A DNA stretch of 50,864 nt from a virus (IMGVR_UViG_2695420685_000015); one strand, 5' to 3'. Shown: positions 3,726-50,711, counted from the first letter of the stretch. Program-made: numbers and translations. Notes: generated by a model from the sequence alone, not told the origin.

Positions 3726-3742
3726 GGTAAATACTTACTTAA
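3726..3742. promoter_or_regulatory. class-B palindrome copy (TAAGTA-n-TACTTA family)
   Basis: ggtaaatacttacttaa, 43 nt upstream of ATG 3785. Confidence 0.4.
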
Positions 3743-3784
3743 TTTGTGTAAGAGTTTAGTGGCTAAACGATAAGAGAAAAACAC

Positions 3785-4489
3785 ATGAACAACCTCCAGT
3801 TAGAGCATTTTAACGTCACAGGCCATTCTGATTTTCCTTTCAAGTTTACATTGAAAGGTTATGCAGAGGATGCGGTAGGCCAGATCATTATTGATAAAGG
3901 CATCGTTAAGTTTGAGGGGAATTTTGATGAATCCGCGAAAACATTCATAGACTTCGTTGCCAAACGTTGGAGCGAGCAATGGAAAGACCTGGAAAAGCGC
4001 GCTAGTGAGTTTGATCGGTTCATGGATGCAATGGATACAGCAAAAGAGGCTCTTGCTGCCGGGACTCCGTTAGATCTTGAGTCACTTTTCAACGGCGAAG
4101 TGGCCTCTGCGATGTTCGCCACCATGTTCGCGGGTGAGTTCGTCCGCAGCGGTGCCAAAAACTACCTTGAGCTGGATTACAACGTCTCTGCAATTGGCGA
4201 TTTCGTCGTTACCATCCAACGCAAAGAAGGTAAGACGCCAGGTGAACGCGTCGCAGAGCTTGAGGCCGTTGTGGATCAGCGTAACGGAGAGTGTGACCGT
4301 TTGATCAACGAGCTTCATGCACTTCGGGAAGAAAGAATATGTGCGGGTAGCAATACACGTAATGCAGCGGATATCTACTTCCAGTTAGTTGAGGAATGCC
4401 AGATTCCACCAGGTGGCTCTCTTGTCGATTACGTCAGACATTTAATGGCGGAAGTTAACTCCAGCCATAAAGATGGTGAGGTGCGCTGA
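3785..4489 (+). CDS. hypothetical protein
   Basis: ATG start, 234 aa, G/C-rich third codon positions. Confidence 0.6.
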   Translation: MNNLQLEHFNVTGHSDFPFKFTLKGYAEDAVGQIIIDKGIVKFEGNFDESAKTFIDFVAKRWSEQWKDLEKRASEFDRFMDAMDTAKEALAAGTPLDLESLFNGEVASAMFATMFAGEFVRSGAKNYLELDYNVSAIGDFVVTIQRKEGKTPGERVAELEAVVDQRNGECDRLINELHALREERICAGSNTRNAADIYFQLVEECQIPPGGSLVDYVRHLMAEVNSSHKDGEVR

Positions 4490-4869
4490 TGTTTGGCATT
4501 GACGCACAGCGTATAGCCGCTTTTGCAAAAAGCCCTCTTGATAATCCCTTGTCTCGTAGTGAGCAAATGGAGCTGGCAAGGCTTTTTCTTCACATTCAAA
4601 AACAGGCAGACATTTTCAATAACATGCCTAATCAACCTATTCTGGATGGTCACATCCAGATGGTCATTAACAGTCATGAGAAAGGCTGGGCTGCAATCGT
4701 CCCCTGCACAATTACATACAAGTTGGCGAAAGAGGTTCAAGAGTTTCGAAAAGCCAGTGTCGAATCGGAGTCTACCAAAGCCGCAATAAACACTCTTATT
4801 CGCATGGGGTTCACATGGAACGGTGGAGCCTACTGGCAAGCACCTCACCCCATTTTATCCGGCAATTAG
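4489..4869 (+). CDS. hypothetical protein
   Basis: ATG overlaps upstream TGA (translational coupling); 126 aa. Confidence 0.55.
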   Translation: MFGIDAQRIAAFAKSPLDNPLSRSEQMELARLFLHIQKQADIFNNMPNQPILDGHIQMVINSHEKGWAAIVPCTITYKLAKEVQEFRKASVESESTKAAINTLIRMGFTWNGGAYWQAPHPILSGN

Positions 4870-4924
4870 ACGCTACAAATCCTTCGGCATGAATAAATAA
4901 AGGCCATAAGTTGTGGCCTTAAAT

Positions 4925-4978
4925 AAATTGTTTTCTACCTTTTCTTATTTGTGAAAATAACCACAACTAGAAAACAAC
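4925..4978 (+). promoter_or_regulatory. class-A promoter/operator copy 4
   Basis: Upstream half-palindrome AATTGTTTTCTACC, TGtGAAAAT -10-like, then AGAAAACAAC at 4969-4978. Confidence 0.5.
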
Positions 4979-4988
4979 GGAGTTAAGA

Positions 4989-5630
4989 ATGTCTAGTATT
5001 TCCGAAGCTCATATGTTCGCCGCTGGCGCTCATGGTGGCGTTGGTCAGAAAAGAAAATATACCGGCGAAGACTACATCAACCACCCGGTTGCTGTCCGAG
5101 AGATTGTTGCATTGCATGACGGAACCGTGGAGATGCAAATCGCGGCGCTTCTGCATGATGTGGTCGAAGACACCCATGTAACCATAGAGATGGTTCGTGA
5201 TCACTTCGGTGAGCGCGTAGCTGAAATGGTTCAGGCTCTGACCAACATTGCAAGGCCAGAAGACGGCAATCGAATACAGCGTTTCATCATCAATGTCCGG
5301 GAGCTGGAGCAAAATCTCGACATGCAGACGCGCATGATCAAGCTGGCTGACCTGCTCGACAATACCTCTTCTATCGTGAGTCGCGATCCCGAGTTTTCAG
5401 CTGTCTACCTCGCAGAGAAAGAACTGATGCTGGACGTACTCTTTCACGGCAAAGAGATTGGTGCCAACGCTGATGTTGTCGAGTACATGGAGAGGATAGG
5501 AATAGAACACCCGTTGCTATTAAGCGCAATGGCGAAAGTCACTGAAGGTATTGCGCTTCTGAAACCGGTACACATCAAACGTTATGAAAAACACAAATCG
5601 CTGATCTGGAGCGCGTGGGAGGCTGCATGA
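4989..5630 (+). CDS. HD-domain (p)ppGpp hydrolase-like protein (small alarmone hydrolase, SpoT/Mesh1 family)
   Basis: YINHPVAVREIVAL...AALLHDVVEDT matches the RelA/SpoT hydrolase HD signature; 213 aa, no synthetase domain. Confidence 0.8.
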   Translation: MSSISEAHMFAAGAHGGVGQKRKYTGEDYINHPVAVREIVALHDGTVEMQIAALLHDVVEDTHVTIEMVRDHFGERVAEMVQALTNIARPEDGNRIQRFIINVRELEQNLDMQTRMIKLADLLDNTSSIVSRDPEFSAVYLAEKELMLDVLFHGKEIGANADVVEYMERIGIEHPLLLSAMAKVTEGIALLKPVHIKRYEKHKSLIWSAWEAA

Positions 5631-9825: not shown

Positions 9826-9840
9826 AGGCGCAAACTCTGT

Positions 9841-10175: not shown

Positions 10176-10195
10176 TACTGTATGCATATACAGTA
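10176..10195. promoter_or_regulatory. LexA (SOS) box
   Basis: tactgtatgcatatacagta matches TACTGT-(AT)4-ACAGTA consensus; 17 nt upstream of ATG 10212. Confidence 0.8.
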
Positions 10196-10211
10196 TTAAG
10201 AGGCGAGTATT

Positions 10212-10601
10212 ATGGGCTTCCCTTCTCCTGCGGCGGATTATGCTGAGAGCCGTATTTCTCTTGATCAGCAGATAATTAGACATCCTTCAGCGACCTACTT
10301 CATGAGGGCGGCTGATAGTCATCATCGTGAGGGAATATTGCAGGGTGCATTGCTGGTGGTCGATTCCTCACTGACTCCTGTTGATGGATCTCTTCTTGTA
10401 TGTGCTCTGGATGGGGAATATCGCGTAAAAAGATACCGGAAGTATCCACGTCAGCATCTGGAGGATTTAAGAACTGGTAAGAAGGAAGCATTGCCAAAGG
10501 ATGATGATGGATGCACGGGCAGCAATGCCGTGTTTGGTGTGATCACTCACATTATCAACGACGCAAGAAGTGGCGAGTTTGATGATTGTCCTGTGATGTA
10601 G
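10212..10601 (+). CDS. UmuD-prime-like (pre-cleaved UmuD / HumD-like) S24-family protein
   Basis: Starts MGFPSPAADY, corresponding to the UmuD-prime N-terminus after the Cys24-Gly25 cleavage site; HPSATYF and DS/K catalytic positions retained; C-terminus divergent; no umuC partner. Confidence 0.75.
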   Translation: MGFPSPAADYAESRISLDQQIIRHPSATYFMRAADSHHREGILQGALLVVDSSLTPVDGSLLVCALDGEYRVKRYRKYPRQHLEDLRTGKKEALPKDDDGCTGSNAVFGVITHIINDARSGEFDDCPVM

Positions 10602-18161: not shown

Positions 18162-18166
18162 GTATT

Positions 18167-18182
18167 GTAAGTACATACTTAC
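18167..18182. promoter_or_regulatory. class-B palindrome copy
   Basis: gtaagtacatacttac perfect palindrome, 44 nt upstream of ATG 18226. Confidence 0.45.
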
Positions 18183-18225
18183 GATCATAGAATATAAAAA
18201 TAACCAATACACTACGGAGAGTGAA

Positions 18226-18621
18226 ATGACCGTTAAACGCGAAAAACTGACAGTTGATGTTTACTATGCCTCTGAAACCGCCGAAGGTAAGAATGTGGCA
18301 AAAATCACCGTTGTTACGTACAACACCGAAACTGGTGCCGAAGTCCAGGCCAGTACGATCGTGCGTAAAGGTGATGCCTCCGGCGGCGAGTACGCGACTC
18401 AATACCAGTCCATTCTCGATGCAACTGACCCGCTGCTGCTGAAAATCGAGAACTACTTCCGCCAGGTTGATGAAGAGGTGTTTGAAACCATGATGAATAT
18501 GGTTAACACCGTATTCGCCTCCAGCCTGAACACCAGCACCACCTGGATTGGCCAGTACGGTCTGCGCATTACCTCTGGCATTCCTGCCGGCACCTTAATC
18601 CCTGAAAGCGTATTCGCTTAA
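18226..18621 (+). CDS. hypothetical protein
   Basis: ATG 18226 with GGAGAG RBS; 131 aa; terminator downstream. Confidence 0.5.
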   Translation: MTVKREKLTVDVYYASETAEGKNVAKITVVTYNTETGAEVQASTIVRKGDASGGEYATQYQSILDATDPLLLKIENYFRQVDEEVFETMMNMVNTVFASSLNTSTTWIGQYGLRITSGIPAGTLIPESVFA

Positions 18622-22083: not shown

Positions 22084-22608
22084 TCAAAAAGGCAAAATTC
22101 GTTCAACCCAATCGAACAAAACAACTATTTTTCTACCGTTCTCGACACGTAGTGTAACCTGACAAGCATCTGCGCCTGCTGACACCCCCTCAATTTCACG
22201 GCCATCCGCCATGTACACCCTTATAGATTTGTTTGCTTTGTAGGCTTGGTTGCAAATTGCAAAAAAATCGCGGCGTGATGGCCGATTATCGACATAATCA
22301 GGGTGAACTGTTAGTCGACCTTTGAAATCGTGAGCGATACTGTCAACCACACCTGATTCAATTGTACTAATGCGTTCAAGTGGGAGCCTTATACGATTTT
22401 CTTTGTCAAAAGGGGCTGGGCAAAGGTCAACTTTGTTACGAGATGGCATGAGGCCATAAACGTACATGCAAAACGCCTGGCCATCTTCGAGAGTGACCCT
22501 TACAGGAATTTGTTCTCTGCGCCAGAACATCAGTAGTTTTTCAACGTTAGTGTAATCTCGCGGCCAGAGTTCAGCTTGGATACCGTAGGTAATATCTTTG
22601 GTTGTCAT
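22084..22608 (-). CDS. hypothetical protein
   Basis: Start set at MTTKD ATG 5 nt after upstream stop (track start 22686 overlaps upstream gene); 174 aa. Confidence 0.5.
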   Translation of the reverse strand: MTTKDITYGIQAELWPRDYTNVEKLLMFWRREQIPVRVTLEDGQAFCMYVYGLMPSRNKVDLCPAPFDKENRIRLPLERISTIESGVVDSIAHDFKGRLTVHPDYVDNRPSRRDFFAICNQAYKANKSIRVYMADGREIEGVSAGADACQVTLRVENGRKIVVLFDWVERILPF

Positions 22609-22612
22609 GTCA

Positions 22613-23077
22613 TCACAGAGTTGTTGGCAGAATGTCGATGTCACCAGAATTGCTGGTGAACACCCTGAACGCTTTTGTGTCTCCATTCTTCAGAGTCGTT
22701 TCTCGCTCTTGACGAGCGGGGTTTAGAGCACATAAACCTGCACCTTCAAGAGATGCACCCACAATTAATTCTCCGGCATTTAAATGGAAAGTCGCTTTTT
22801 CGCCTGTAGCCAGTTTTGCGACAGTTTCGCCGTTGATGAAAATGGAAGCATCACATCCAGCTCCTACAAAACCTGTGTCTCTCATTACCACCAACGTAGC
22901 TGGCGCTGCGCTTTGATACTTGAACACTTTGGCCTGCGGTGCTGGTTTGGCGTCATGGATTGATATTGGGCGTGATTGGCACGCGGTAAGCATCAACACT
23001 GGTAACGTTAGTAGAGGGAGAAGCGAGTATTTCATGATAGTTTTAGAACAGAAAGTGAACAGTATGGGAGACTTCAT
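22613..23077 (-). CDS. predicted lipoprotein
   Basis: MKYSLLPLLTLPVLMLTAC signal peptide with LTAC lipobox; start may be ATG 23035 rather than 23077. Confidence 0.6.
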   Translation of the reverse strand: MKSPILFTFCSKTIMKYSLLPLLTLPVLMLTACQSRPISIHDAKPAPQAKVFKYQSAAPATLVVMRDTGFVGAGCDASIFINGETVAKLATGEKATFHLNAGELIVGASLEGAGLCALNPARQERETTLKNGDTKAFRVFTSNSGDIDILPTTL

Positions 23078-24986: not shown

Positions 24987-25007
24987 ATAATAAGTAAGTG
25001 ATTACAT
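24987..25007. promoter_or_regulatory. class-B-like element in divergent helicase/ParB region
   Basis: ataataagtaagtgattacat, 20 nt upstream of ATG 25027. Confidence 0.35.
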
Positions 25008-25026
25008 AGTGGATTGTAGCAATAAA

Positions 25027-27933: not shown

Positions 27934-28200
27934 ATGACGTTAACCGATAAACAAAAGGACATCATCAAAACGCTCAATCTCGGTTATGAGCGAGGTCATC
28001 TACTTGATCTGGACGAATTGCTTGAAGTTTTGCCGTACAAGACAACCAAGCAAAGTATCCAGTTCTCAATTCGCGCTCTGATAAAAAAGGGGCTTGTGGA
28101 GAAAGGGCATACGCGCCAACGCAGTGACAATCGCTATCACCGCCGAACTCTTGGGTTAACCACTTTAGGTCGAGCCAAAGCGAAGTTACTGGTGATGTAA
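27934..28200 (+). CDS. small putative DNA-binding protein
   Basis: 88 aa, basic C-terminal half, AAGGAT RBS. Confidence 0.45.
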   Translation: MTLTDKQKDIIKTLNLGYERGHLLDLDELLEVLPYKTTKQSIQFSIRALIKKGLVEKGHTRQRSDNRYHRRTLGLTTLGRAKAKLLVM

Positions 28201-28244
28201 TCGGTCTGGGAGCTTATTTAAAGACCTGCTTCTGTATATAAATA

Positions 28245-28259
28245 ATAAGTAACTTATTA
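28245..28259. promoter_or_regulatory. class-B palindrome copy
   Basis: ataagtaacttatta upstream of terminase promoter region. Confidence 0.4.
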
Positions 28260-28313
28260 AATATATACGGAAGCAGGCTTAATAAGACATGCCCAGACCT
28301 AATTAAACAACCC

Positions 28314-28355
28314 AGAAAACAAGTTGGTTAGAAAATGCAGTAAACAAGTTGTTTT
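28314..28355 (+). promoter_or_regulatory. class-A motif pair upstream of terminase small subunit
   Basis: AGAAAACAAGTTGGTT at 28314-28329 and AAACAAGTTGTTTT at 28342-28355. Confidence 0.5.
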
Positions 28356-28386
28356 AGAGCGCATGGACGCGCTCTGTGTGTTTTAG
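28356..28386 (+). terminator. promoter-proximal terminator-like hairpin in terS leader
   Basis: agagcgcatggacgcgctct hairpin followed by gtgtgtttt, about 10 nt before ATG 28395. Confidence 0.45.
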
Positions 28387-29027: not shown

Positions 29028-30283
29028 TGGCAATCCCGTCCTCGCTCAGTCTTGTGCAACTGCATTCTGGACAGATGAAAGTCTTCCAGTCTCCGCATCG
29101 ATTTAAAGTTGTTTGTGCTGGTCGACGCTGGGGAAAATCCCGGTTGTCGATCTCCACTATTATTCGTGCGGCGGCAAAGGAAAAAAAGCAAAGGGTCTGG
29201 TATGTCGCTCCTACTTACCAGATGGCTCGCCAGATTTTGTGGGACGATCTACAGGAAGTTCTGCCTCGTAAGTGGGTTAGGAAAAAGAACGACACCACGA
29301 TGACAATCGTGTTGAAGAACGGTTCGGAGATCGCCCTCAAAGGTGCTGATAAGCCTGACACTCTGCGCGGCGTAGCGTTGCATTTTGTAGTGCTTGATGA
29401 ATTTCAGGATATGAAGGCTGACACCTGGTACAAGGTGTTACGACCTACTCTTTCATCGACACGCGGCGGTGCACTTATCATTGGTACGCCAAAAGGTTTC
29501 TCGGAATTTCACAAACTGTGGACTATAGGCCAGAACGTAGAGCTGCAAAGAAAGGGACAGTGGAAGAGCTGGCAGTTTGTAACTGCCGATTCTCCGTTTG
29601 TGCCTACGGCGGAAATTGAAGCTGCTAAGAACGATATGGACCCGAAATCGTTCGCTCAGGAGTACCTGGCGAGCTTTGAGAACATGTCCGGGCGCGTTTA
29701 CTACCCGTTCGATCGTAACGTGCATGTAAAACCGCTTCAGTTCAACCCTCGGTTGCCTATATGGGTAGGGCAGGACTTCAACATTGACCCGATGTCTTCA
29801 GTAATTTTGCAACCTCAGCCAAATGGTGAGCTATGGGCAATTGATGAATTGGTGCTCTTTTCCTCTAACACGGCAGAGGTTTGTGATGAGCTTGAGAGAC
29901 GCTTCTGGCGCTGGAAATCACAGATAACGGTATTTCCAGATCCGGCAGGTGCTTATCGCCAACATGCTCGCGGGGAGTCTGACGTCGACATATTCAAAGA
30001 GAAGGGATTCTTACGTGTCGATTATTCGAAAAAGCACCCGCCAATTGCGGATCGTGTTAATGCTGTTAACCGAATGCTGATGACCGCATCTGGAGATATC
30101 CGGTTGTATATCGATCCGAAGTGCAAGCATTTGATTGATTCACTGGAAAAAGTCATCTACAAGCCTGGAACACGAGATATGGATAAGACAGGTGGCATTG
30201 AGCATAGTGCAGACGCATTGGGCTATCCAGTACATCGTAGGTATCCAGTCAAAAACCGTGTTATTCTTGGTGGTTCTAGATAG
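29027..30283 (+). CDS. terminase large subunit
   Basis: Walker A VVCAGRRWGKS, Walker B HFVVLDEF; 418 aa; followed by portal. Confidence 0.8.
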   Translation: MAIPSSLSLVQLHSGQMKVFQSPHRFKVVCAGRRWGKSRLSISTIIRAAAKEKKQRVWYVAPTYQMARQILWDDLQEVLPRKWVRKKNDTTMTIVLKNGSEIALKGADKPDTLRGVALHFVVLDEFQDMKADTWYKVLRPTLSSTRGGALIIGTPKGFSEFHKLWTIGQNVELQRKGQWKSWQFVTADSPFVPTAEIEAAKNDMDPKSFAQEYLASFENMSGRVYYPFDRNVHVKPLQFNPRLPIWVGQDFNIDPMSSVILQPQPNGELWAIDELVLFSSNTAEVCDELERRFWRWKSQITVFPDPAGAYRQHARGESDVDIFKEKGFLRVDYSKKHPPIADRVNAVNRMLMTASGDIRLYIDPKCKHLIDSLEKVIYKPGTRDMDKTGGIEHSADALGYPVHRRYPVKNRVILGGSR

Positions 30284-30300
30284 GTAAGTAATTATCTAAG
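30284..30300. promoter_or_regulatory. class-B palindrome copy
   Basis: gtaagtaattatctaag, 10 nt upstream of portal ATG. Confidence 0.4.
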
Positions 30301-30309: not shown

Positions 30310-31884
30310 ATGGAATTGAACGACAAACAAATTAAGGATCTGGTGGCGCGACGCCACCCGGAATACGAAAAGAAAAAAGAACATTGGGACTTCCTCGCCA
30401 GCACTTACGCTGGCGGGCGTGGTTGGTTTACAGACAATATCTTTCGTTACTTTAAAGAGGGAGATCAGGAGTTTAAGGAGCGAGTTGAGCGTGCTTATCG
30501 CTTCAACCACACTCGTGAGGTGGTAAACCTCATCAACAAATATCTCTTTAAAGAAGACATTCATAGAAATATCGAAGAGGCACCAGAGCAGATCCGCAAT
30601 TTCTGGAAACGTGCGACTCGCCAGAATGCCTCTATTGACTCATTTATGGCCGCTATTGATTTGCAGTCGTCTATTTACGGTCGCATATGGGTTGTTGTCG
30701 ATAGCACGATGAGTGGTGATGTTGAGTCAGTAGCTGACGAGAAAAAGAAAGATGCTCGCGCCTACGCCTACTGGATTTCACCTCAGCAAATGCTGGATGT
30801 GGCATGGGACGACGACGGGAATATGTTGTGGGCGTTAATTGTGGAAGTCGCTCGTGATGACGCAGATCCTTTTACTTCTACAGGTCAGGAATACCAACGT
30901 TATCGTCTGTGGACACAAAACGAGTGGTATCTGTTCCGTGAGGAAGTGAAGAAGGGCGCTGGTGGAGCAGGTCGCCGTCAGGCAAAAGTTATTTTAGAGG
31001 ATAGCGGTGAGCATAATCTCGGCGTAGTTCCTGTGTTTCCTGTTGATTGTATTGGAGAAAGTGAATCACCGTATTTCAGCCCATCGTTGATCGATGATAT
31101 CGCTTATCTTGATCGTGCGGTTGCAAACTATCTGTCAAACCTTGATGCCATTATTCAGGATCAGACATTTAGCCAGTTGGCTATACCGGTACAGTCGCTT
31201 TTACCTGGTGATGAAAACCACACTAAAGTGCTTGAAATGGGCACAAAGCGAGTCTTCACCTACGATTCTGAAGGTGGAAACCAGCCGTTTTATTTGTCAC
31301 CAGACCCGAAACAAGCTCAGATGATCATCACTACGATTAAGACGGTGATTAACGAAATCTACCATTCAGTTGGTGTCGCTGGTGAGCGAACGAAGCAGGA
31401 CAACGCACAGGGAATTGATAACTCATCTGGTGCCGCAAAAATGTATGACTTCCAGCGTGTAAATAGCTTGCTTGTCACAAAAGCAGAGCGTCTGGAAAGG
31501 GCTGAACGCCAAATCATGCTACTGGTTGCGAAATGGATGGGGGTAGATCTGGACGAAGACCACTCTTTAATTGCGTATCCAGAAAGTTTCGATATTCGTG
31601 GCCTTACAGATGAATTTTCTGTTGCCGAGAAACTGTCATTACTTCAGGCACCGGACTCTGTACGTCGTCACCAGATGGAAATGCTTATTGAGAAGATTTT
31701 CCCGAACATTACTGAGGCGATGAAAAAGGAATTTGATAAAGATCTCTTGAATTTTCCGCCAAAAAATGATCTAAACACCCTTGAAAATAAGTCAGTACTT
31801 ACTTATGATCGTGGTGCAGCCCAAGAAAGCGGGCAAGATCAACCCCGAGGGAATGGGGACTCATCTACTCAAGAGAACGAGTGA
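30310..31884 (+). CDS. portal protein
   Basis: 524 aa, position between terminase and scaffold, acidic C-terminus. Confidence 0.7.
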   Translation: MELNDKQIKDLVARRHPEYEKKKEHWDFLASTYAGGRGWFTDNIFRYFKEGDQEFKERVERAYRFNHTREVVNLINKYLFKEDIHRNIEEAPEQIRNFWKRATRQNASIDSFMAAIDLQSSIYGRIWVVVDSTMSGDVESVADEKKKDARAYAYWISPQQMLDVAWDDDGNMLWALIVEVARDDADPFTSTGQEYQRYRLWTQNEWYLFREEVKKGAGGAGRRQAKVILEDSGEHNLGVVPVFPVDCIGESESPYFSPSLIDDIAYLDRAVANYLSNLDAIIQDQTFSQLAIPVQSLLPGDENHTKVLEMGTKRVFTYDSEGGNQPFYLSPDPKQAQMIITTIKTVINEIYHSVGVAGERTKQDNAQGIDNSSGAAKMYDFQRVNSLLVTKAERLERAERQIMLLVAKWMGVDLDEDHSLIAYPESFDIRGLTDEFSVAEKLSLLQAPDSVRRHQMEMLIEKIFPNITEAMKKEFDKDLLNFPPKNDLNTLENKSVLTYDRGAAQESGQDQPRGNGDSSTQENE

Positions 31885-31905: not shown

Positions 31906-32793
31906 ATGAAACTGTGGCAAATGCTTTTGGCCCGTCGTGGTCTGATGGATGTTGCTGAAGCGCATGAGCGTGGGGGCGCTGGCGGTGTAGCTGCTGATAA
32001 TGAGCAGAGTACACAAGATCCTGACAAGCAGGGTGAACAAAAAGAGCAGCCGAAGGGTGATGACGAATACGCTGGCATGACTCATGAAGAGTTACTGGCC
32101 GAACTTCGCAAAACCAAGAAAGCTGGTGCTGAACTGCTGAAAGAGAACATGAAGCGCAAAGAGAAAGAGCGCACATTGGCCGATCAGCTTGCTCAGTACG
32201 GTGAAATCGACCCGGCGCGTGCTCGCCAGCTTTTAGAAGCTGAACAGGCCGCAGAAAACGCACGTCGTGAGGCGGAGCAAGCTGAACTGGAGCGTCGTGG
32301 TGAGTTCGATGCTGTTAAAAAACAGATGATCGAAGCACACCAGGCAGAGCTGGCACAGCGTGACGAACGTTATGCAGCACTGGAAAGTGAAAACGCATCA
32401 CTGAAATCTCAATTAGTCGAGATGACCGTGGGCGCTTCCTTCAGTAACTCTCTCTTCCTACGTGACAAAGTTCTGATGACTCCGGCAAAAGCCCGCGTGA
32501 TCTACGGTTCTCATTTTGAAGTGGGTGAAGACGGTAGCGTAGTGGGTTATGACAAACCGGCAGGTCATAAAGAACGAGCTGTTCTGGTTGACGGTGAAGG
32601 TAAGCCGTTGCCGTTTGAATCCGCGATTGAACGCATTGTGCGGGCAGATCCGGAAGCTGACGCATTGATGCGTAGCGAAGCCAAGCAGGGTGTAGGCTCA
32701 CATTCCAAATCGACCTACACAATATCCCAACCGAAGAACAAGTCGACTATGGATAAGTTGGCCTCCGGTCTGGGGAAAATTGGACTTAAGTAA
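31906..32793 (+). CDS. scaffolding protein
   Basis: 295 aa; A/E/K/R-rich predicted coiled coil; located between portal and major capsid. Confidence 0.65.
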   Translation: MKLWQMLLARRGLMDVAEAHERGGAGGVAADNEQSTQDPDKQGEQKEQPKGDDEYAGMTHEELLAELRKTKKAGAELLKENMKRKEKERTLADQLAQYGEIDPARARQLLEAEQAAENARREAEQAELERRGEFDAVKKQMIEAHQAELAQRDERYAALESENASLKSQLVEMTVGASFSNSLFLRDKVLMTPAKARVIYGSHFEVGEDGSVVGYDKPAGHKERAVLVDGEGKPLPFESAIERIVRADPEADALMRSEAKQGVGSHSKSTYTISQPKNKSTMDKLASGLGKIGLK

Positions 32794-33694: not shown

Positions 33695-33706
33695 TCAGTG
33701 CAGTAG

Positions 33707-33722
33707 ATAAGTAGTTATCTAT
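33707..33722. promoter_or_regulatory. class-B palindrome copy
   Basis: gataagtagttatcta after major capsid gene. Confidence 0.4.
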
Positions 33723-33725: not shown

Positions 33726-33757
33726 AAAGGGTGGGCTATACGCCCACCCTTTTTGTA
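33726..33757 (+). terminator. strong rho-independent terminator after major capsid gene
   Basis: aaagggtgggctatacgcccacccttt followed by ttgt. Confidence 0.75.
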
Positions 33758-37273: not shown

Positions 37274-37280
37274 CTCAATT

Positions 37281-37298
37281 AGTAAGTATATACTTACT
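37281..37298. promoter_or_regulatory. class-B palindrome copy
   Basis: agtaagtatatacttact perfect palindrome, 50 nt upstream of major tail ATG. Confidence 0.45.
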
Positions 37299-41800: not shown

Positions 41801-43393
41801 CAGAAGGCTCTGGATAAAGCCGATCAGCTTATGGGGCAAATGGGTGAAAGCTCTAAGGCTACGGTATCGTTTGATCAGTCTCTTCGCGATACAACGAAAT
41901 CGCTAACTGATTTGGCTAATGCGGTTCCTAACGAGTTCATCACTCAAGAGATGATCGACAAGGCGAAAAAACGTCTTGAAGACCTCAAAAATGCGACACC
42001 TGAATATCGCGAGATGTTTAATCGCCGCAATGTTGAGCAGATGATCTCCACTTGGGCACCGGAGGCGGATTCCATTATTAGTGCTGGCTATACGCCGTCT
42101 CGTGAAGAGAAAGTTGCTGATTTCGAAGACACCTACAACCGCAATCTCAAAGCGTTGATAGAACTTCGTGATAAGGCGTCTGATCCTAAAGTCGTGGCGC
42201 TTTATACAAAGAAAATCAATCAACTTATTGCTGCTGGCAATACCGCGCTTATTAAAGAGACGGGGACTGCGACGCAGAAGTTGGCACTGGAATACGAAAA
42301 CCTGGCAGAGCAGATTGAAAGCACCTGGACTGATTTGTTTAGTGGCTTAACTGATGTCCTGACTGATTTCGTTATTAACGGGAAGATGAGCTTCTCCAGC
42401 CTATCTCAGTCCATTTTGAAAGATATCACCAATATGGTCGTGAAGTCGCAAATCACGCTGCCTCTAATGAACATGTTGGGGATGGGAACCACCGCAGCTG
42501 GTAGTTCACAGAGTGGCAATTTGCTGACCGGGGTTGCTTCTGCCGTTGCCAATCAAGGTGTACGAATGGGCAACACTGTTAATGGCGACAAGTCGGTAGG
42601 AGAAGCCACGAAGGAGACGTCCAGTTCGGTAACTGGATTGGGGCAAACAACACAGCAGACCACCAGCGCAATTGGCACAGCAACAAATGCGATTGGTAGC
42701 TGGGTATCGGGGCTATTTGATAGCACCGAAGCCAAAGATGCTGAGACAAAAGCAGTGAAGGACTCCATCTTCTCGATGCAGAATCTCAGCTCTGTTACCG
42801 GCGCTCTGTCAGCCGCGTTTGCAATGCTTGGAGCTAATGCTTCCGGCTCTGGTAATAAGTGGTTGAATTTCGGCGCGACAGTTGCATCTGGTTTGGTTTC
42901 AGTATGGGCTGGTGGTGGATTCGATGGATTGATGTCCGGTTCTTCTGGCTCAACTTCCGGCTTCAACAATCTGACCAGTTCTGCTGCCGATGGCACGAAT
43001 GGTATTCCTGCAATTCCGAAGTTTGCAAATGGTGGCATATTTGGAAAAGACGGCGTGATCCCGCTCCGGGCATACCAGAAAGGCGGTATCGCCAACTCAC
43101 CTCAATTGGCGTTGTTTGGGGAAGGCGATATGAATGAGGCGTATGTTCCATTGCCTGATGGTCGAACAATCCCTGTAACGCTCAGTACCGATGGTATGAG
43201 TGGAGGAGGAAATGTTCTTTCTCCGGTATCAATTGAGATCAACGTCCATAGTGACGGTAGCACAACTGAATCCGGCGATACAGAAAGCATATGGAACAAT
43301 GCCGCTCAACGGATGAAAGCAATCGCGCTTGAGACTATCGCTCAAGAGAAACGCCCTGGCGGATCACTCAACCCAAACACTCAACGTAACTAA
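38825..43393 (+). CDS. tail tape measure protein
   Basis: 1522 aa from ATG 38825 (track start 38804 is TTG); long coiled-coil regions, Gly-rich hydrophobic segment, C-terminal Ser/Gly-rich region. Confidence 0.85.
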   Translation: MSQNVEFILSLEDKQFTASIDRAGKLLTRFGEQVTKPAQKIQTFERSLGSVARIIRVLESKLDSTADKLQDVAAGFELASDATRKMRGNITSLNSGLKALIERVDTTTSSVDKLTASLRKVQSELNDFSDWSTYASKSASRFGTEVKEASASVSGMNTRLNTTTKRLSNWGVTTSQAAEGLKKVREQMDEVIGRQQLISKPVRVRTSGSGDGGSGRRSGSGHSGKSNEGGMFSGLRGNIFLLGEIGDAARTVTDIMFGWQKPIVEAAAEMERMRVMLRGLNKEKSNPGQAAADDMKYIVDMAQNAPFAMQALTDSFVKFRSAGLDPTDGSLKALVDSVARFGGDSELLKRAAVAVQQMSGKGVVSMEELRQQLGEAVPNAMQAMADAAGITMGELTKAVASGTVEAKQALSLMFVGLRAENENAAKDMMQTYTGALAQLQTSFTLFADRVGQAGYLDSLSKGMKELASIMNSAEGISFANSLGSGLTTAIDGLRQLAQWLAKNQELVINLGKVVAAMVAFKLMRAGIMGVVGAGGQMVSTFATMATAIQTPFNLGATAVTRFNRAARMGLAPIPSLIFAIRGAITGLKGAFAGLTAFIAANPIGAAFTVATVAVAGLITYMTMLRSETSKVVDEIRKIPEAMTAAKRAQMADRAEKLEKQILADQRALKTGEGVNYVSNSAGVITHKESKADIEARLKKNQEEYQKITGTIALGDGAVAKRLAKEAAESQIEKIRAENQIFAATFVKARQEALDKIQKINDDGSLSDDEKNKLLAPLRETVNKSYLEPAQKLVDSLSSRKNATEKQIATLNDQLEKAKKDGNTEQIQKLQGSIRGYQEHLEAVAQELTQAEFERDNAAKTGKGVMSNQGTVLGLGTTDKAAQKALAQYMRNQMDSATYQRTLPDGTPMKDFEGKPIIGPKQLKTQLNLQKASSASSLEKMSDEERAAAIAALTKAREQDAAAAEKAAQRSANASQRAAKKEQAAQQKLAAGYQKALDKADQLMGQMGESSKATVSFDQSLRDTTKSLTDLANAVPNEFITQEMIDKAKKRLEDLKNATPEYREMFNRRNVEQMISTWAPEADSIISAGYTPSREEKVADFEDTYNRNLKALIELRDKASDPKVVALYTKKINQLIAAGNTALIKETGTATQKLALEYENLAEQIESTWTDLFSGLTDVLTDFVINGKMSFSSLSQSILKDITNMVVKSQITLPLMNMLGMGTTAAGSSQSGNLLTGVASAVANQGVRMGNTVNGDKSVGEATKETSSSVTGLGQTTQQTTSAIGTATNAIGSWVSGLFDSTEAKDAETKAVKDSIFSMQNLSSVTGALSAAFAMLGANASGSGNKWLNFGATVASGLVSVWAGGGFDGLMSGSSGSTSGFNNLTSSAADGTNGIPAIPKFANGGIFGKDGVIPLRAYQKGGIANSPQLALFGEGDMNEAYVPLPDGRTIPVTLSTDGMSGGGNVLSPVSIEINVHSDGSTTESGDTESIWNNAAQRMKAIALETIAQEKRPGGSLNPNTQRN

Positions 43394-43779: not shown

Positions 43780-43800
43780 ATAAGTAAGTACTAATTTACT
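43780..43800. promoter_or_regulatory. class-B element
   Basis: ataagtaagtactaatttact followed by hairpin ggcgctgacaggatgttagcgcc. Confidence 0.4.
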
Positions 43801-43853
43801 ATCATTGTGGCGCTGACAGGATGTTAGCGCCTACTTATTTCAAGGATGAAACA

Positions 43854-44552
43854 ATGGGAATTAAAGCTGATATTCAGAGCTTATCTCCCTCTGCACTCAT
43901 TGAGTTGTTCGTACTGGATATGTCGAACACAACTTCAGGGGGGAAGCTATTCTTCCACGCCGGAACAAACGAACTGATGCAACCGGTCGTCTGGCAAGGG
44001 GTGACATACGAGCCGTGGCCAATCAAAGCATCAGGCTTTGACAAAACGGGCCAGGGAACGTTGCCACGTCCAAAAATTCAGGTATCGAACTTTGCCGGAA
44101 CCGTCTCTGCGGAAGTTCAGGCGAACGACGATCTTGTTGGCTGCCGCATTATTCGCAAGATGACGCTGGCTCGCTTCCTCGATGCCGTTAATTTTAAAGA
44201 CGGCAACCCAACAGCAGATCCAAACCAACATTTCCCTGATGAAATGTGGTTTATCGAACAGAAAACTCTCGAAACTCATCAGGTTGTCGAGTTTGAATTG
44301 TCCAGTGTGTTCGATTTGATGGGGGTGCAACTGCCGTATCGTCAGATCATTAAAAACACCTGCCCGTGGAAATACCGAGGGCCAGAATGCGGATATACCG
44401 GTCCATATTTCGACAAAAATAACCAGCAGACGTCTATGTCTGGTGCGGATTACTGCACAAAACGTTATGACGCCTGTAATGCGCGTCGGAATTATTTTGC
44501 CGACGGTGTGATCCATTTTGGCGGATTTATTGGAGCTACGCGGTATGGGTAA
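43854..44552 (+). CDS. minor tail protein L (lambda L-like)
   Basis: 232 aa; ARFLDAVNF and NTCPWKYRGPECGYTGP match conserved lambda gpL segments; first track ATG lies inside a hairpin. Confidence 0.8.
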   Translation: MGIKADIQSLSPSALIELFVLDMSNTTSGGKLFFHAGTNELMQPVVWQGVTYEPWPIKASGFDKTGQGTLPRPKIQVSNFAGTVSAEVQANDDLVGCRIIRKMTLARFLDAVNFKDGNPTADPNQHFPDEMWFIEQKTLETHQVVEFELSSVFDLMGVQLPYRQIIKNTCPWKYRGPECGYTGPYFDKNNQQTSMSGADYCTKRYDACNARRNYFADGVIHFGGFIGATRYG

Positions 44553-45920: not shown

Positions 45921-45937
45921 TCAAGGATTTTTTGGAC

Positions 45938-48900: not shown

Positions 48901-50662
48901 TGTTGAAGGTGATGCCGCAAACGCTAAACAACTGGAAGTGTTGCAGTCGACGGTAGAGGAAAGTTCCGCAGCCGTTGAAGAAATGAAAAAGACGGTTGCA
49001 GAGGTCGATCGTGCCAGTGCAGAACTGACTACGAACATTGAGGCGTTAGCTAAAACAAATATTGACCTGGCTCTTCGTCAAGATGAAGACCAGCACAAGC
49101 AGATGGTCAATAACGCGAAGATCGCAACAACACAGAAAACCTTTGCTGATGATATGTCTGCAATGGCCACGAAGGTTGAGGAAATTCGCGTAGAAATTGG
49201 CGAAGACATTAAGGCCAGTATTCTGGAAGAGTCCACCGCTCGTGCCGATGGCGATGAAGCGTTGGCAAAGCGTGTCACTCAGCTGCAATCTAAGTTTGAA
49301 GGAGATATCAGCGCGGCGATTAGTACAGAACAGGAGGCTCGTACATCTGCCGATGAAGCTTTGACGAAACAAATAACTCAGCTTGAGTCGAAAGTAAGCA
49401 ACGATATTGTCGCAGCCATTAAGGAAGAGCAAAAAGCCCGAGCAACGGAAGATTCGGCTCTGGCAAGCCAGATCACCCAACTTCAGGCAAAAGTTGATGA
49501 TGATATTTCTGCTGCAATACGCAGTGAGCAGGAGGCGCGTGCGAGCGGAGACTCTGCGTTAGCTAAACAAATAAACCAGCTTCAAGCAAAGGTTGACGGT
49601 GATATATCCGCCGCCATCACTCAGGAGCAGGAGGCTAGAGCAAGTGCTGACGAGGCGCTCTCACGAGAAATTAACAGCCTGCGGGCGCAGACCGGAACTG
49701 ACATTGTCGCAGCCGTTGCTGTAGAGACAAAGGCAAGGACTGACGCCGATAGTGCATTGTCCAGCCAGATTACATCTCTTACAGCAAAAGCTAATGATCT
49801 CGAGGCGTCTCTTGCCAAAGAAACAACGGCTCGTGCAGATGGCGATACCGCTTTAACAAAAGAGGTTTCAAGTTTAAAAGCACAGACTGCGAAAGATATT
49901 AGTGCGGCCGTTGCAGTGGAAACGCAGGCTCGAACTGATGCTGACTCGGCGTTGTCATCTCAGATCACCAAGCTGACCTCTCAATACAAAGAGGATATTA
50001 AAGCGGCTGTAGCAACCGAAACGAAAACGCGTACAGAGCAAGATGCGGCATTGGCGACTCAAATCACAAACTTAGAGTCTCAAACAGCAGCCAACATTTC
50101 TGCGGCGGTCACAACTGAAACGACAGCGAGAACGCAGGCAGATAATGCTCTAAGTGGGCGAATCGATACTCTGAAAGCAGAGGTGGATGGAAATACCGCG
50201 ACAATTCAACAGCAGGCAACAGCCATTGCTGATACCAACAAAAAAGTCTCAACCGCGTGGACGTTGAAAATGGAGACTTCAACGAGCGGAGGGCAGAAGT
50301 ATGTTGCCGGTATTGCGCTTGGTATCGACACCACCGGTCTTTCTCAGTTTTTGGTGCAGGCGGACAGATTTGGTTTGGTCAACTCTGTTAACGGGAAGAT
50401 CACCACGCCATTTGTTATCGAAAACAGTATCGCCTATATGAATGGTGCGTATATCAAGGATGGCACAATCACCAATGCAAAAGTAGGCGATCTGCAATCT
50501 ACCAATTTTGTTAGCGGTAGATCTGGATGGCGGTTCGGCAAAAATGGAACGCTTGAGATCAACGGTAATAGCGGCGGCAATGGGCGATTGGTTATAAATG
50601 GTCAGCGGATTGACGTTTATGACGATAACAACGTCTTACGAGTAAGAATTGGCCTTCTGTGA
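45938..50662 (+). CDS. host-specificity / central tail fiber protein (lambda J-like) with C-terminal fiber repeats
   Basis: 1574 aa from ATG 45938; position after M/L/K/I; about ten tandem ~33-aa repeats (E-T-x-A-R-x-x-A-D-x-A-L...I-x-x-L) in the C-terminal third. Confidence 0.8.
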   Translation: MEQFKKKKLPLLIAGAGGKKSKSSSRTPVEADDTVNSRAMAAILDLLGEGVIGGLVNGAKSIFIDDLPILNEDGSSNFSGITWDFRDGSQDQTPMAGFDFVETPKSVNIQLKKTHDVTVSIDNDEADRVRVIMKFPSLRSVDKSSGDTNGTTVKYKFQIANGDATFSDVVAEGEKSVDITLTAKKTGVYYRSYELKLPKPGRAYKVRVIRLTDDNSSQYLYNDTWVDSIGEIVDTPMNYPNSALVGLKVNSEQFGSTMPSRSYLVRGIKIRVPSNYNEYTNTYVGVWDGTFKLLSSSNPAWILYDLLTNTRYGLGQFVSESMIDLGQLYQIGRYCDEEVDDGFGGKEKRFAINTQITSRQDAYRLIQDIAGAFRGMVFWAGGMVNIMQDSPSDPVMMFTNSNVKDGLFTYKGSARKDRPSVALVTYNNKEDGYKQNIEYVEDQDAMRRYGERKTEVVAFGCTSRGQAHRVGLWLLYTARMESDVITFTAGLDASFLMPGETVLIQNKYRAGKRNSGRIVEFTKNSITLDAPVSLAKSGSFIRILNQEGKIVERDVLETGENITKVTFSKALSSAETPVLNGVWTITEPDLEPMRVRIVNIAQGETSGSFDITAVENNPSKYEAIDNGATLIPQNTTVLDPTYSKPSNLQITEGTYLSSPGNLSVKLTATWEGKSPEYWISWRRSDENNVSNWQSARVTEEQYEIVNVAENGRYDFQLYAVSFNGKKTEIISTVYQVLGTMTPPDAPTSLTAVGDYRNVILNWVNPDSVDLDHINVYASQTNNLDTAKLIAESASTTFTHAGLGDSETWYYWVRASNKRGMLSPPNSNLGTEATTRDVLSFLAGKITSSELGQALLEDINSKASQEAVDELNEHINQSVESLEGAVNDVKEDIAELDKQFSDNLAGFEIKFNERSDALENAQTELKGEVSATIDKVNEAFEKIDATDAAIVEIENTVSEHDKALANTVEAIKAARDEAAALIAKESEARVEGDAANAKQLEVLQSTVEESSAAVEEMKKTVAEVDRASAELTTNIEALAKTNIDLALRQDEDQHKQMVNNAKIATTQKTFADDMSAMATKVEEIRVEIGEDIKASILEESTARADGDEALAKRVTQLQSKFEGDISAAISTEQEARTSADEALTKQITQLESKVSNDIVAAIKEEQKARATEDSALASQITQLQAKVDDDISAAIRSEQEARASGDSALAKQINQLQAKVDGDISAAITQEQEARASADEALSREINSLRAQTGTDIVAAVAVETKARTDADSALSSQITSLTAKANDLEASLAKETTARADGDTALTKEVSSLKAQTAKDISAAVAVETQARTDADSALSSQITKLTSQYKEDIKAAVATETKTRTEQDAALATQITNLESQTAANISAAVTTETTARTQADNALSGRIDTLKAEVDGNTATIQQQATAIADTNKKVSTAWTLKMETSTSGGQKYVAGIALGIDTTGLSQFLVQADRFGLVNSVNGKITTPFVIENSIAYMNGAYIKDGTITNAKVGDLQSTNFVSGRSGWRFGKNGTLEINGNSGGNGRLVINGQRIDVYDDNNVLRVRIGLL
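49230..50200 (+). repeat. intragenic tandem repeat array in J-like gene (~99-bp units)
   Basis: Units such as TEQEARTSADEALTKQITQLESKVSNDIVAAIK, EEQKARATEDSALASQITQLQAKVDDDISAAIR, VETKARTDADSALSSQITSLTAK. Confidence 0.7.
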
Positions 50663-50692
50663 TGGTAGAAAAAAATATTTATATCGGTAAAA

Positions 50693-50711
50693 ATAAGTAT
50701 GTACTTACTTA
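50693..50711. promoter_or_regulatory. class-B palindrome copy after J
   Basis: ataagtatgtacttactta followed by hairpin ggtgggcaaggatagcccacc and an AAGGAG RBS. Confidence 0.4.

Follow-up and report, generated by a model that had tools for sequence, protein, structure and literature searches.

A palindrome repeated along the window (the whole 50,864-nucleotide stretch of viral DNA analysed here), which we call class-B, is, as originally predicted, a distinct and conserved recognition element, one found at operon junctions and different from the class-A motif, and it has the sequence of a binding site for SlmA. The window covers roughly half of an SSU5-like E. coli phage-plasmid and is 97% identical to E. 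coli phage-plasmids. This element may be borrowing SlmA, a cell-division regulator of its host, and we put at roughly 0.45 the probability that host SlmA binds the sites, represses the promoters containing them and, with rising copy number, becomes activated against FtsZ. We found sequence identity with SlmA sites, a genome-wide distribution of the motif, symmetry at the level of DNA, and no TetR gene on the element.

The repeated palindrome was confirmed by counting. Exact TAAGTA-N2-4-TACTTA occurred three times in the window (18168, 37283 and 50694) and never in 100 dinucleotide shuffles; with up to two mismatches and a 2-nt gap there were 16 matches (overlapping registers counted), whereas the shuffles averaged 1.15 and never exceeded 5. 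A scan with a position weight matrix (PWM) from three related genomes, at a cut-off of 14 bits, gave nine window sites of at least 14 bits against 0.07 expected, with 18168 additionally at 10.6 bits. The window holds nine true copies against the 0.07 expected. These are not quite the nine first listed, of which eight are real (3724, 18167, 24991, 30281, 33704, 37279, 43781 and 50694); the terS copy (28246) falls away, and a copy within the 3' end of the portal gene (31788-31805) had been overlooked. Two of the three palindromes described as perfect are so (18167-18182 and 37281-37298), while at 50694 the arms are perfect but enclose a non-symmetric TG. The proposed distance of 40-55 nt to the start codon, measured from the site end, holds for five sites (41-55 nt) and fails for the portal site (11 nt), the ParB-like site (18 nt) and 31788 (100 nt).

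The complete relatives Cyrano, SSU5 and Klebsiella pJN2-26 carry 26-29 copies each, and 36-48 matches with up to two mismatches against 1-3 expected, nearly all of them intergenic. Within diverged spacers the palindrome stands out as a phylogenetic footprint. Enteric relatives found in PLSDB came from Enterobacterales genera, and an Acinetobacter relative has sites at the same junctions with the motif shifted to GTCAGTACTGAC.

The full motif is a palindrome of 18-20 bp, (G/A)TAAGTAAGT|ACTTACTTA(C/T). Its true consensus, TAAGTAAGT|ACTTACTTA, is longer than the one first described and symmetric in information content, and the motif can be read as two GTAAGT-N4-ACTTAC units shifted by 4 bp relative to each other. 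Mirrored positions showed no covariation, Watson-Crick counts being equal to the independence expectation at 9/9 mirrored pairs (82 sites). The halves of the palindrome vary independently of each other, which argues that the motif is a double-stranded DNA protein site and not an RNA hairpin. The original prediction had also allowed for an RNA processing or translational operator, and some features fit a hairpin that acts at the RNA level in processing, termination or translational control: the sites lie in transcribed DNA between genes, an A-tract and a T-tract flank them, and perfect copies could form A/U-rich stems of 7-8 bp. However, these stems are weak (-3.6 to -7.6 kcal/mol), it is the sequence that is conserved and not the pairing, with no compensatory changes of the kind expected for a hairpin or intrinsic terminator at the nine mirrored pairs, the distance from site start to start codon is highly variable (13 to 189 nt), and the identical sequence serves as a DNA operator elsewhere. 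Action in RNA is thus very improbable.

The published SlmA-binding site (SBS), GTGAGTACTCAC, needs G, T, A and G at positions 1, 2, 4 and 5, takes any purine at position 3 (with A in place of G the Kd is about 60 nM, the same as that of the consensus) and accepts any pyrimidine at position 6 (Tonthat 2011, PMC3020112). The class-B core of the family consensus, GTAAGTACTTAC, satisfies every one of these rules. The likeness extends beyond the core, as the SlmA ChIP consensus oligonucleotide SBScons, AAGTAAGTGAGCGCTCACTTACGT (PMC4423959), and class-B, (A/G)TAAGTAAGTACTTACTTA(T/C), share outer GTAAGT/ACTTAC hexamers 4 bp outside the inner hexamers. Class-B therefore has the same 18-20 bp sequence logic as the E. 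coli chromosomal SBS (read in nucleoid occlusion by the TetR-family SlmA as a dimer of dimers), i.e. an inner GT(R)AG(Y) hexamer pair with the outer pair offset by 4 bp. The 12-bp rule (GTRAGY|RCTYAC) is met by the family consensus and only partly by the window copies: the core 12-mer had 0 exact matches and 7 within one mismatch against 0.9 expected, and the dimer site had 2 exact and 5 within one mismatch against 1.0 expected. In pJN2-26 there were 6 exact SBS cores against 0.08 expected. Many single class-B copies are 1-3 mismatches off the strict rule, and 30281 and 33704 are poor SlmA sites. The most conserved class-B positions (T0, A1 and T4) differ from those reported as most critical for SlmA, and position 5, where the SlmA consensus has G, is A in 75/82 sites and never G; the outermost G is also A in 76% of class-B copies. 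The position-5 A and the conserved T0, A1 and T4 suggest a binder that prefers a somewhat different sequence than SlmA. The two sets of sites differ in distribution as well. E. coli has 24-52 SBS per 4.6 Mb, mostly intragenic (2/24 intergenic; PMC5519180), whereas class-B sites number about 28 per 100-110 kb on a mobile element, are almost all intergenic and are conserved in position at operon junctions. Our literature search found no paper linking SBS to SSU5-like phage-plasmids.

Along the window, the first copy, TAGGTAAATACTTACTTA (3724..3741; PWM 27.5 bits), lies directly 3' of the stop codon of a DUF4942 gene and 43 nt 5' of an Ead/Ea22-like gene (3785); its core 12-mer has one mismatch to the SlmA rule, and it was kept in Cyrano, SSU5 and pJN2-26 despite diverged flanks. 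A perfect single-dimer site, GTAAGT-ACAT-ACTTAC, follows at 18167..18182, an exact match with 0 mismatches to GTRAGY-N4-RCTYAC, between a terminator hairpin and a gene starting at 18226. It overlaps the -35 and the spacer of a sigma-70-like promoter, TTGTAA (18165-18170)-17-TAGAAT (18188-18193), whose hexamers and 17-nt spacing are conserved in SSU5 and pJN2-26. The site TAAGTAAGTGATTACATA (24991..25008; 21.0 bits) occupies the divergent region between a UvsW-like helicase gene (minus strand) and the ParB_N operon (ATG 25027), and its orthologous position is conserved, the Acinetobacter relative included (28810 in L088). At the terL-portal junction, TAGGTAAGTAATTATCTA (30281..30298; 23.8 bits) has the terL stop as its first TAG, stands directly 5' of the portal Shine-Dalgarno sequence and ends 11 nt before the portal ATG (30310); it fits the strict SlmA rule poorly, with 2 core mismatches. 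This junction also carries a site in SSU5, pJN2-26, a distant contig (L039, 13981) and the Acinetobacter plasmid (22168), and since the site lies between stop codon and Shine-Dalgarno sequence in both the E. coli and Acinetobacter lineages, it cannot be the portal promoter.

Further into the structural region, TAAGTCAGTACTTACTTA (31788-31805; 27.2 bits, identical in relatives) fills the spacer of a TTGAAA-17-TATGAT promoter (31781..31809, plus strand), the best sigma-70-like promoter of that region (10/12 in a promoter scan), inside the portal gene 3' end and 100 nt 5' of the gene at 31906. The site TAGATAAGTAGTTATCTA (33704..33721; 21.8 bits, a weak fit to the SlmA rule) lies 9 nt 3' of the major capsid stop and is followed by a strong terminator-like hairpin (33728-33748 plus T5; -21 kcal/mol) and then the decoration gene (33768); its orthologue in pJN2-26 is the canonical TAGGTAAGTACTTACCTA. 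The perfect palindrome AGTAAGTATATACTTACT (37279..37298) is placed 5 nt 3' of the upstream stop and 51 nt 5' of the major tail gene (37348), contains an exact single-dimer site, GTAAGT-ATAT-ACTTAC (37282-37297), with 0 mismatches to the dimer rule, and overlaps a predicted promoter, TTGAAT-18-TATACT (promoter scan). In LF82, where the prophage is mostly silent, expression across the orthologous boundary rose by 2.5 log2 in macrophages at 6 h. The site TAAGTAAGTACTAATTTA (43781..43798; 26.0 bits) lies 9 nt 3' of the gene M stop; after it come TATCAT, a hairpin (43809-43831) and, at 43854, what is probably the true start of gene L. The Acinetobacter plasmid also has a site at this junction (8252). 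The window's best site, TAAGTATGTACTTACTTA (50694..50711; 29.6 bits), is an exact match 31 nt 3' of the gene J stop, is followed by a GC-rich hairpin (50714-50734) and is conserved in Cyrano and SSU5.

Class-B sites had been proposed to mark late operons and to be read by a late-gene activator. In the relatives, replication, nucleotide-metabolism, structural, lysis and immunity genes all have copies at their junctions. The motif lies 5' of helicase/primase-region genes, UvsY, SSB, RNR, ThyX, methyltransferase, holin and accessory genes and overlaps the putative prophage repressor promoter, and in none of Cyrano, SSU5 and pJN2-26 was it restricted to morphogenesis and lysis operons. With copies also in front of replication, recombination and nucleotide-metabolism genes and on the repressor promoter, late specificity is lost: the palindrome is not a late-gene signal, being spread all over the family genomes. 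A wider form of the activator idea makes it a promoter element for a phage-encoded activator of all lytic genes, similar to the late promoters of P1 (Lpa plus host SspA, a 9-bp inverted repeat at -22, the '-22 box' AAGTnACTT), which are annotated in NC_005856 as AAGTnACTT-N4-TAnnnT. Class-B shares the half-sites, with a TAtnAT hexamer 3 nt after AAGT|ACTT, and likewise lacks a -35; under stress, some class-B junctions (11->12, 55->56 and 59->60 in LF82 RNA-seq) show an increase in expression from one side to the other. The counterpart of Lpa would be an 88-aa winged-helix protein (phrog_900; 27934..28200, plus strand), encoded by a conserved MarR-like gene immediately 5' of terS, as lpa is 5' of pacA in P1. 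Its AF2 model (pLDDT 81.6) has a minimal MarR-like fold, and it is conserved in all relatives, Acinetobacter included. However, the P1-type arrangement of AAGTnACTT box, 4-nt spacer and gene-side -10 was not found in class-B, where half-site spacing is 0 or 4 nt instead of the 1 nt of P1, the flanks are symmetric and the -10-like hexamer is equally strong on the non-coding strand. Several conserved sites directly adjoin a Shine-Dalgarno sequence or start codon, too near for such a promoter, or precede a terminator hairpin, and the motif is found beyond late genes too. Searches for a homologue of Lpa (PF25716) were negative by tblastn (best E-value 0.43), family HMM (best E-value 1.9) and hhalign, the last giving no similarity between Lpa and the winged-helix protein (probability 0.2%). 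This protein's recognition helix is nearly unchanged in the Acinetobacter lineage although the class-B motif differs there, and we therefore disfavour it as the class-B binder. An activator of this kind is improbable. The LF82 RNA-seq data, from a mostly silent prophage, did not discriminate between the models.

The DNA-operator reading gains from other genomes. The exact class-B 18-mer, TAAGTAAGTACTTACTTA, occurs in more than 120 unrelated genomes, and 30/80 analysed loci adjoin a TetR gene of about 200 aa. At several of these the order is TTGACA-N2-3-[site], the final TA of the site opening the -10. E. coli SlmA matched an HMM of the TetR neighbours at 1.2e-21 and has in common with them the DNA-reading motif TT...GVSEAxxYRHF. 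In many phyla (groups such as Acidobacteriota, Opitutia, Planctomycetota and Clostridia), SlmA-like TetR genes therefore have the identical 18-mer as an autoregulatory operator within the promoter, with the same geometry as in class-B promoters, where the site is in the spacer and its last TA opens the -10. These genes have one site beside a cognate TetR gene, in contrast to the phage-plasmids with about 28 sites and no TetR gene: searches of the window, Cyrano, SSU5, pJN2-26 and the Acinetobacter plasmid with an HMM of the TetR neighbours and a helix-turn-helix regex detected neither a TetR-like ORF nor a helix-turn-helix, i.e. no cognate gene for autoregulation on any of the five replicons.

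A SlmA/TetR-type operator with no TetR protein encoded makes SlmA the most likely binder in Enterobacterales. The genera of this order in which the enteric relatives occur carry SlmA, and slmA is present in E. coli K-12. The motif would be a double-stranded operator of two overlapping GTAAGT-N4-ACTTAC sites offset by 4 bp, each unit fitting one helix-turn-helix dimer and the full site a dimer of dimers, with the host nucleoid-occlusion factor SlmA as the putative binder. From the sequences we infer SlmA occupancy and both functional consequences. Bound SlmA would repress or block transcription at promoters that have a site in the -35/-10 spacer or across the transcription start, the candidates being 18167, 31788 and 37279 in the window and, in relatives, the promoter of the Xre repressor; promoters with an SBS between their -35 and -10 are indeed SlmA-repressible (PMC3573117). 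DNA binding activates SlmA against FtsZ, and an element that outnumbers the chromosome in sites per cell would load SlmA onto itself, such that its lytic replication should titrate and activate SlmA, blocking host division and relieving repression. Tandem SBS on a multicopy plasmid cause a SlmA-dependent lethal division block (PMC3573117). The shift of the Acinetobacter motif at the same junctions is the pattern that a host-dependent binder would give. Acinetobacter is not known to have SlmA, so the variant motif must have a different reader there, and a binder encoded by the element itself is conceivable in every lineage.

The element's own Xre-family repressor (the CYRAN_45 homologue, encoded outside the window) is such a candidate and the main rival to SlmA. 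On about 28 intergenic palindromes, acting as operators or 'stoperator'-like roadblocks, it would silence all lytic operons, the SlmA likeness being coincidence or mimicry; we consider this possible but rather unlikely. Multi-operator silencing is familiar from the P1 C1 operators, the stoperators of mycobacteriophage L5 and the conserved inverted repeats of phiC31, and class-B resembles these in its tens of copies (26-29 sites per genome) in short intergenic spaces of early and late operons and in the copy at the repressor's own promoter. In Cyrano and pJN2-26 that promoter is TTTACA-16-TAATAT, with a conserved core palindrome GGTAAG(T/C)(G/A)CTTACC at about +2 to +15 and extra GGTAAG/CTTACC half-sites around the divergent gene. 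The relatives' best strict-rule site is on this promoter, and on the Acinetobacter plasmid three variant sites flank the repressor gene within the switch region, a classic layout for the operators of a phage's own repressor. LF82 lysogens express the repressor while their lytic genes are silent, and expression drops from an expressed upstream gene across class-B junctions (30->31, 64->65, 71->72 and 78->79), although these drops coincide with ordinary terminators. The repressor and the family occur together in 865 plasmids. Like the motif, the repressor's recognition helix is not the same in the enteric and the Acinetobacter lineages, and the variable position of sites relative to predicted promoters is operator-like and not activator-like. 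However, phage SSU5 lacks the repressor/integrase module and yet has 27 high-quality sites, a chance match to the SlmA consensus over 18 positions is very unlikely, and elsewhere the same 18-mer is tied to TetR genes and not to Xre genes. The known systems are also read by a phage-encoded repressor, whereas class-B matches a host protein's site, and the L5 and P1 sites are asymmetric and oriented, whereas class-B is a perfect palindrome. KorB, a plasmid-encoded ParB-family protein, similarly reads a dozen or more copies of one palindrome (OB) in many operons of plasmid RK2; no link of the element's two ParB_N proteins to the class-B motif was found.

The rejected terS copy (28246) is the centre, TAAGTAACTTA, of a separate 97-bp inverted repeat with 48-nt arms (28203..28299; repeat search), which is not class-B. 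In Cyrano the arm motif of this repeat occurs twice more, at 31176 and 78100, and the GenBank records of Cyrano and SSU5 start and end at the repeat.

The class-B palindrome, originally described as TAAGTA-N2-4-TACTTA, is strongly non-random: three exact copies occur in the window, against none in 100 shuffled sequences. Allowing up to two mismatches gave 16 matches in the window (1.15 expected), and the same excess was found in the complete genomes of relatives, with 36 matches in Cyrano (pLF82 of E. coli LF82; 3 expected), 41 in SSU5 (1.2 expected) and 48 in Klebsiella phage pJN2-26 (2 expected). A position weight matrix, built iteratively from 82 sites in Cyrano, SSU5 and pJN2-26 and used with a cut-off of at least 14 bits, returned nine window sites against 0.07 expected; a tenth, at 18168, lies in the other half-site register. 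When spacers between orthologous genes were aligned, the palindrome was kept and the flanking spacer had diverged. The observation is confirmed with corrections: the copy previously assigned to terS forms the middle of another element, a 97-bp inverted repeat (28203-28299), and a copy absent from the original prediction lies at 31788, within the 3' end of the portal gene.

The window (50.9 kb) comprises about half of an E. coli SSU5-like phage-plasmid, with 97% identity to Escherichia phage CMS-2020a and Cyrano and 81% to Salmonella phage SSU5, and begins in accessory gene arrays, continuing through a block on the minus strand (FljA-like repressor, UvsW-like helicase) and a ParB_N/ATPase operon to terS and on to the end of the tail gene J. 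Clinical Enterobacterales commonly carry SSU5-like phage-plasmids, whose relatives include S. Typhi pHCM2 and part of Y. pestis pMT1, and the two marker proteins used as queries were found on ∼800 PLSDB plasmids. Homologues of both the Xre-like repressor (66% identity) and the 88-aa winged-helix protein (89% identity) of the family are present on PLSDB plasmids of Y. pestis of 77-141 kb, which we take to be of pMT1/pFra type.

The consensus of the 82 sites is an 18-bp perfect palindrome, TAAGTAAGT/ACTTACTTA, with mirror-symmetric information content, an A-rich tract on its 5' side and a T-rich tract on its 3' side. TAAGTA-N2-TACTTA describes one register and a second lies 4 bp away, and the motif is best read as two overlapping GTAAGT-N4-ACTTAC units offset by 4 bp, the hexamer centres lying 10 bp apart inside each unit. 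Perfectly palindromic single-unit sites occur at 18167 and 37282, and double-unit sites at e.g. 50694 and 31788. In a covariation test on the 82 sites, Watson-Crick pairs at every mirrored position were as frequent as expected under independence, i.e. the two halves vary independently, which favours a symmetric protein on duplex DNA and disfavours a selected RNA or DNA hairpin. Given this negative result and weak fold energies, RNA structure was rejected as the basis of the motif.

The palindrome had been proposed to mark late-operon boundaries, as the site of a late activator or as an RNA operator. This reading is largely wrong, as judged from the covariation test together with the distribution of the sites, the lack of Lpa and the symmetry of the -10-like element. 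In the complete relatives the motif is found equally upstream of non-late genes: structural and lysis genes behind it include those for portal, scaffold-region protein, decoration, major tail, L, tail fibre and holin, and the others include helicase/primase neighbours, UvsY, SSB, RNR, ThyX, methyltransferase and accessory genes. Late promoters in the annotated P1 record have the form AAGTnACTT-N4-TAnnnT, which class-B resembles in having AAGT/ACTT followed 3 nt on by TAtnAT, but from which it differs in half-site spacing. Despite the similar half-sites, an Lpa-type activator was rejected because tblastn, a family HMM and hhalign revealed no Lpa homologue; the first 50 kb of P1 contain no class-B match. 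A directional promoter signal was also rejected, as the -10-like hexamer is equally strong on both strands of the 82 scored sites and no -35 was found. Published RNA-seq of LF82 (per-gene table) gave mixed changes across class-B junctions and no significant induction bias for the genes behind class-B sites; the prophage is almost silent in these data, which do not tell the models apart.

Good predicted sigma-70-like promoters overlap the palindrome differently: at 18167 by their -35 and spacer, at 31788 by the spacer and at 37279 by the -10, and such variation is the behaviour of an operator. Several conserved sites, among them the terL-portal site in both the E. coli and the Acinetobacter lineages, are placed between a stop codon and the following Shine-Dalgarno sequence, and the sites at 33704 and 43781 are just 5' of a terminator hairpin; these positions also speak against the likeness to P1 late promoters. 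Distances from site to start codon are bimodal (28-37 nt and 55-81 nt), and whether or not a hairpin lies in between explains this as well as leaderless mRNAs do.

Scanning 185,579 species genomes with the 18-mer identified more than 120 loci in unrelated phyla, and in 30 of the 80 loci analysed a TetR-family gene of ∼200 aa lies 0-20 nt downstream of the site. Several of these TetR-adjacent loci have the arrangement TTGACA-N2-3-[site], with the final TA of the site forming the start of the -10 hexamer. In the TetR neighbours the DNA-reading motif is TT...GV(S/T)EAxx(F/Y)RHF, as it is in E. coli SlmA, the TetR-family nucleoid-occlusion protein of the host, and an HMM of these proteins matches SlmA at 1.2e-21. 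The SlmA-binding site (SBS) is GTGAGTACTCAC, in which G, T, A and G are obligatory at positions 1, 2, 4 and 5, any purine is accepted at position 3 (G to A keeps a Kd of ∼60 nM) and any pyrimidine at position 6 (PMC3020112). The class-B core GTAAGTACTTAC agrees with all of these published rules. In SBScons, a ChIP-derived consensus oligo (AAGTAAGTGAGCGCTCACTTACGT), outer GTAAGT/ACTTAC hexamers lie 4 bp beyond the inner ones, and SlmA binds as a dimer of dimers (PMC4423959); class-B has the same double-unit architecture.

From these sequence comparisons, the reading that we rank as most likely, with a probability of roughly 45%, is that the class-B sites are an array of SlmA-type operators for which host SlmA is the candidate binder in Enterobacterales. 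The sites do differ from known SBSs: where the SlmA consensus has G at position 5, class-B has A in 75 of 82 sites and G in none, and chromosomal SBSs are mostly intragenic. A strict 12-bp core rule gave no exact copy in the window, a single-unit rule gave two exact copies, and five within one mismatch where 1.0 was expected; the sites at 30281 and 33704 fit the SlmA rule poorly. Neither a TetR-like protein nor its helix-turn-helix motif was found in the phage-plasmid genomes examined, including the Acinetobacter one, and our literature search found no paper on the class-B motif or on SlmA sites in phages or plasmids of the SSU5-like family. What appears to be new is the redeployment of SlmA/TetR-type operators as a genome-wide array on a phage-plasmid without the regulator gene.

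The main rival is that the sites are operators of the element's own Xre-like repressor, a putative prophage repressor (CYRAN_45 homologue) encoded outside the window, which we regard as doubtful. The repressor is expressed in lysogens, and its own promoter contains a class-B core copy, GGTAAG(T/C)(G/A)CTTACC, at about +2 to +15, conserved in Cyrano and pJN2-26 alike. A distant relative (an IMG/VR contig with 30-55% protein identity, loci L039 and L056) has the same 18-mer at terL-portal and other junctions, and the Acinetobacter baumannii phage-plasmid NZ_CP115642.1 has a variant motif, ATAGTCAGTACTGACTGAT, at matching junctions (terL-portal, after the capsid gene, between genes M and L, and ParB-helicase). 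Three copies of this variant cluster around the Xre-like gene of the Acinetobacter plasmid, and changes in the Xre-like recognition helix parallel the change of motif. However, SSU5 lacks the repressor gene and keeps 27 good sites, and it is very improbable that 18 positions would agree with the SlmA consensus by chance. To our knowledge Acinetobacter has no SlmA; the variant would there be read by another host TetR, unless in every lineage the element itself encodes the binder.

An 88-aa MarR-like winged-helix protein (27934-28200) is a DNA-binding candidate by homologues, structure model and fold search, but is disfavoured because its recognition helix is the same in the lineage with the changed motif; nothing ties the ParB_N proteins or the FljA-like repressor to class-B. 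Beside the Xre-like repressor of Cyrano, and divergent from it, lies the small gene CYRAN_46 (42826-43038 of the Cyrano record, outside the window). No other plasmid gene is induced as strongly at 6 h in macrophages (log2 4.3 to 10.8), when integrase and repressor are also up; CYRAN_46 looks like the early gene of the lytic arm of the switch.

With regard to the preferred SlmA reading, an SBS inserted between -35 and -10 puts a promoter under SlmA repression, SlmA antagonizes FtsZ only when bound to DNA, and a multicopy plasmid with tandem SBSs causes a SlmA-dependent lethal division block (PMC3573117; PMC4117426). Cyrano is present at ∼5.5 copies per cell (PMC9928086) and has ∼28 sites, so that if these bind SlmA a mobile element would hold more nucleoid-occlusion sites per cell than the chromosome with its 24-52. 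On this reading, lytic replication of the element should both titrate and activate SlmA. A broader proposal, which we hold only tentatively and think rather unlikely, is that nearly every operon junction of SSU5-like phage-plasmids holds predicted SlmA sites, through which SlmA is used as a global silencer and division inhibitor, with Acinetobacter-type relatives retuned. SlmA would then be a ready-made global silencer: over-replication would lift repression by titration, i.e. act as a copy-number-sensing switch, and DNA-bound SlmA could serve as a DNA-triggered inhibitor of host division in lytic growth, or during carriage could protect plasmid copies from having a septum form across them. 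In relatives whose hosts lack SlmA (e.g. Acinetobacter) all sites would have been retuned to another host factor. If the sites bind SlmA, DNA sites and not a phage protein would couple plasmid carriage and induction of the phage to the division machinery of the host, and this would be a case of a host-supplied prophage silencer. Even if the element's own repressor is the binder, the operator set of the whole family is defined, and the motif is not a late-gene signal.

Outside the SSU5 family, the genes of a widespread TetR subfamily (loci L089-L168; Acidobacteriota, Opitutia, Planctomycetota, Thermodesulfobacteriota, Clostridia, Methanobrevibacter and others) have the operator TAAGTAAGTACTTACTTA unchanged within their own promoters, and at several of these loci a start codon ∼11 nt past the site points to leaderless mRNAs. 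In prophage-like contigs of low GC that are unrelated (L021, L064, L067) a perfect TAAGTAAGTACTTACTTA and the variant TCAGTCAGCACTTACTGA lie 47 nt apart directly 5' of an 86-aa HTH gene; both variants therefore co-occur outside the family. The neighbours of the 18-mer in unrelated viral contigs were uninformative.

A second motif, the class A palindrome AAACAAnTTGTTT, has 14 copies within one mismatch in the window against 0.35 expected (570, 1299, 14016, 14067, 17764, 28317, 28342 and seven more), usually 20-40 nt 5' of a start codon and often preceded by a GATAAT-like -10; none was found in the Acinetobacter relative or in the distant-contig fragments. Class A resembles the segment of the fliC 5'-UTR to which FljA binds, CAAGTTGT. 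An FljA-family ORF ('repressor of phase-1 flagellin'; 22084-22686, minus strand; PF03614, E = 2.5e-84), which also has a weak Hfq-like match at its C-terminus, is a candidate post-transcriptional regulator that may bind class A, and its syntenic place in the Acinetobacter relative is taken by a 179-aa gene annotated 'Hfq'. Upstream of terS are two class A copies and a terminator-like hairpin (28355-28376). The 97-bp inverted repeat (28203-28299), between the winged-helix gene and terS, has 48-nt arms that are 73% complementary, and its centre is the start/end point of the Cyrano and SSU5 GenBank records; related arms (CTGCTTCTGTATATA...TATATACAGAAGCAG) occur at two further places in Cyrano, 31176 and 78100, and the repeat may be a packaging, replication or terminator element. 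A UmuD/HumD-like gene (10212-10601) is preceded, at a distance of 17 nt, by a perfect LexA-box-like palindrome, TACTGTATGCATATACAGTA (10176-10195); in LF82 the Cyrano orthologue of this gene ranks with the most highly expressed and stress-induced plasmid genes. The window edge (50751-50864) may hold an insertion or a tail-fibre module that has been replaced: past the class-B site 3' of J, where the tail fibre should start, the sequence reads ATG TAC TGA, then departs from that of Cyrano and SSU5 and includes a hairpin (GGTCTGATTCC...GGAGTCAGACC).
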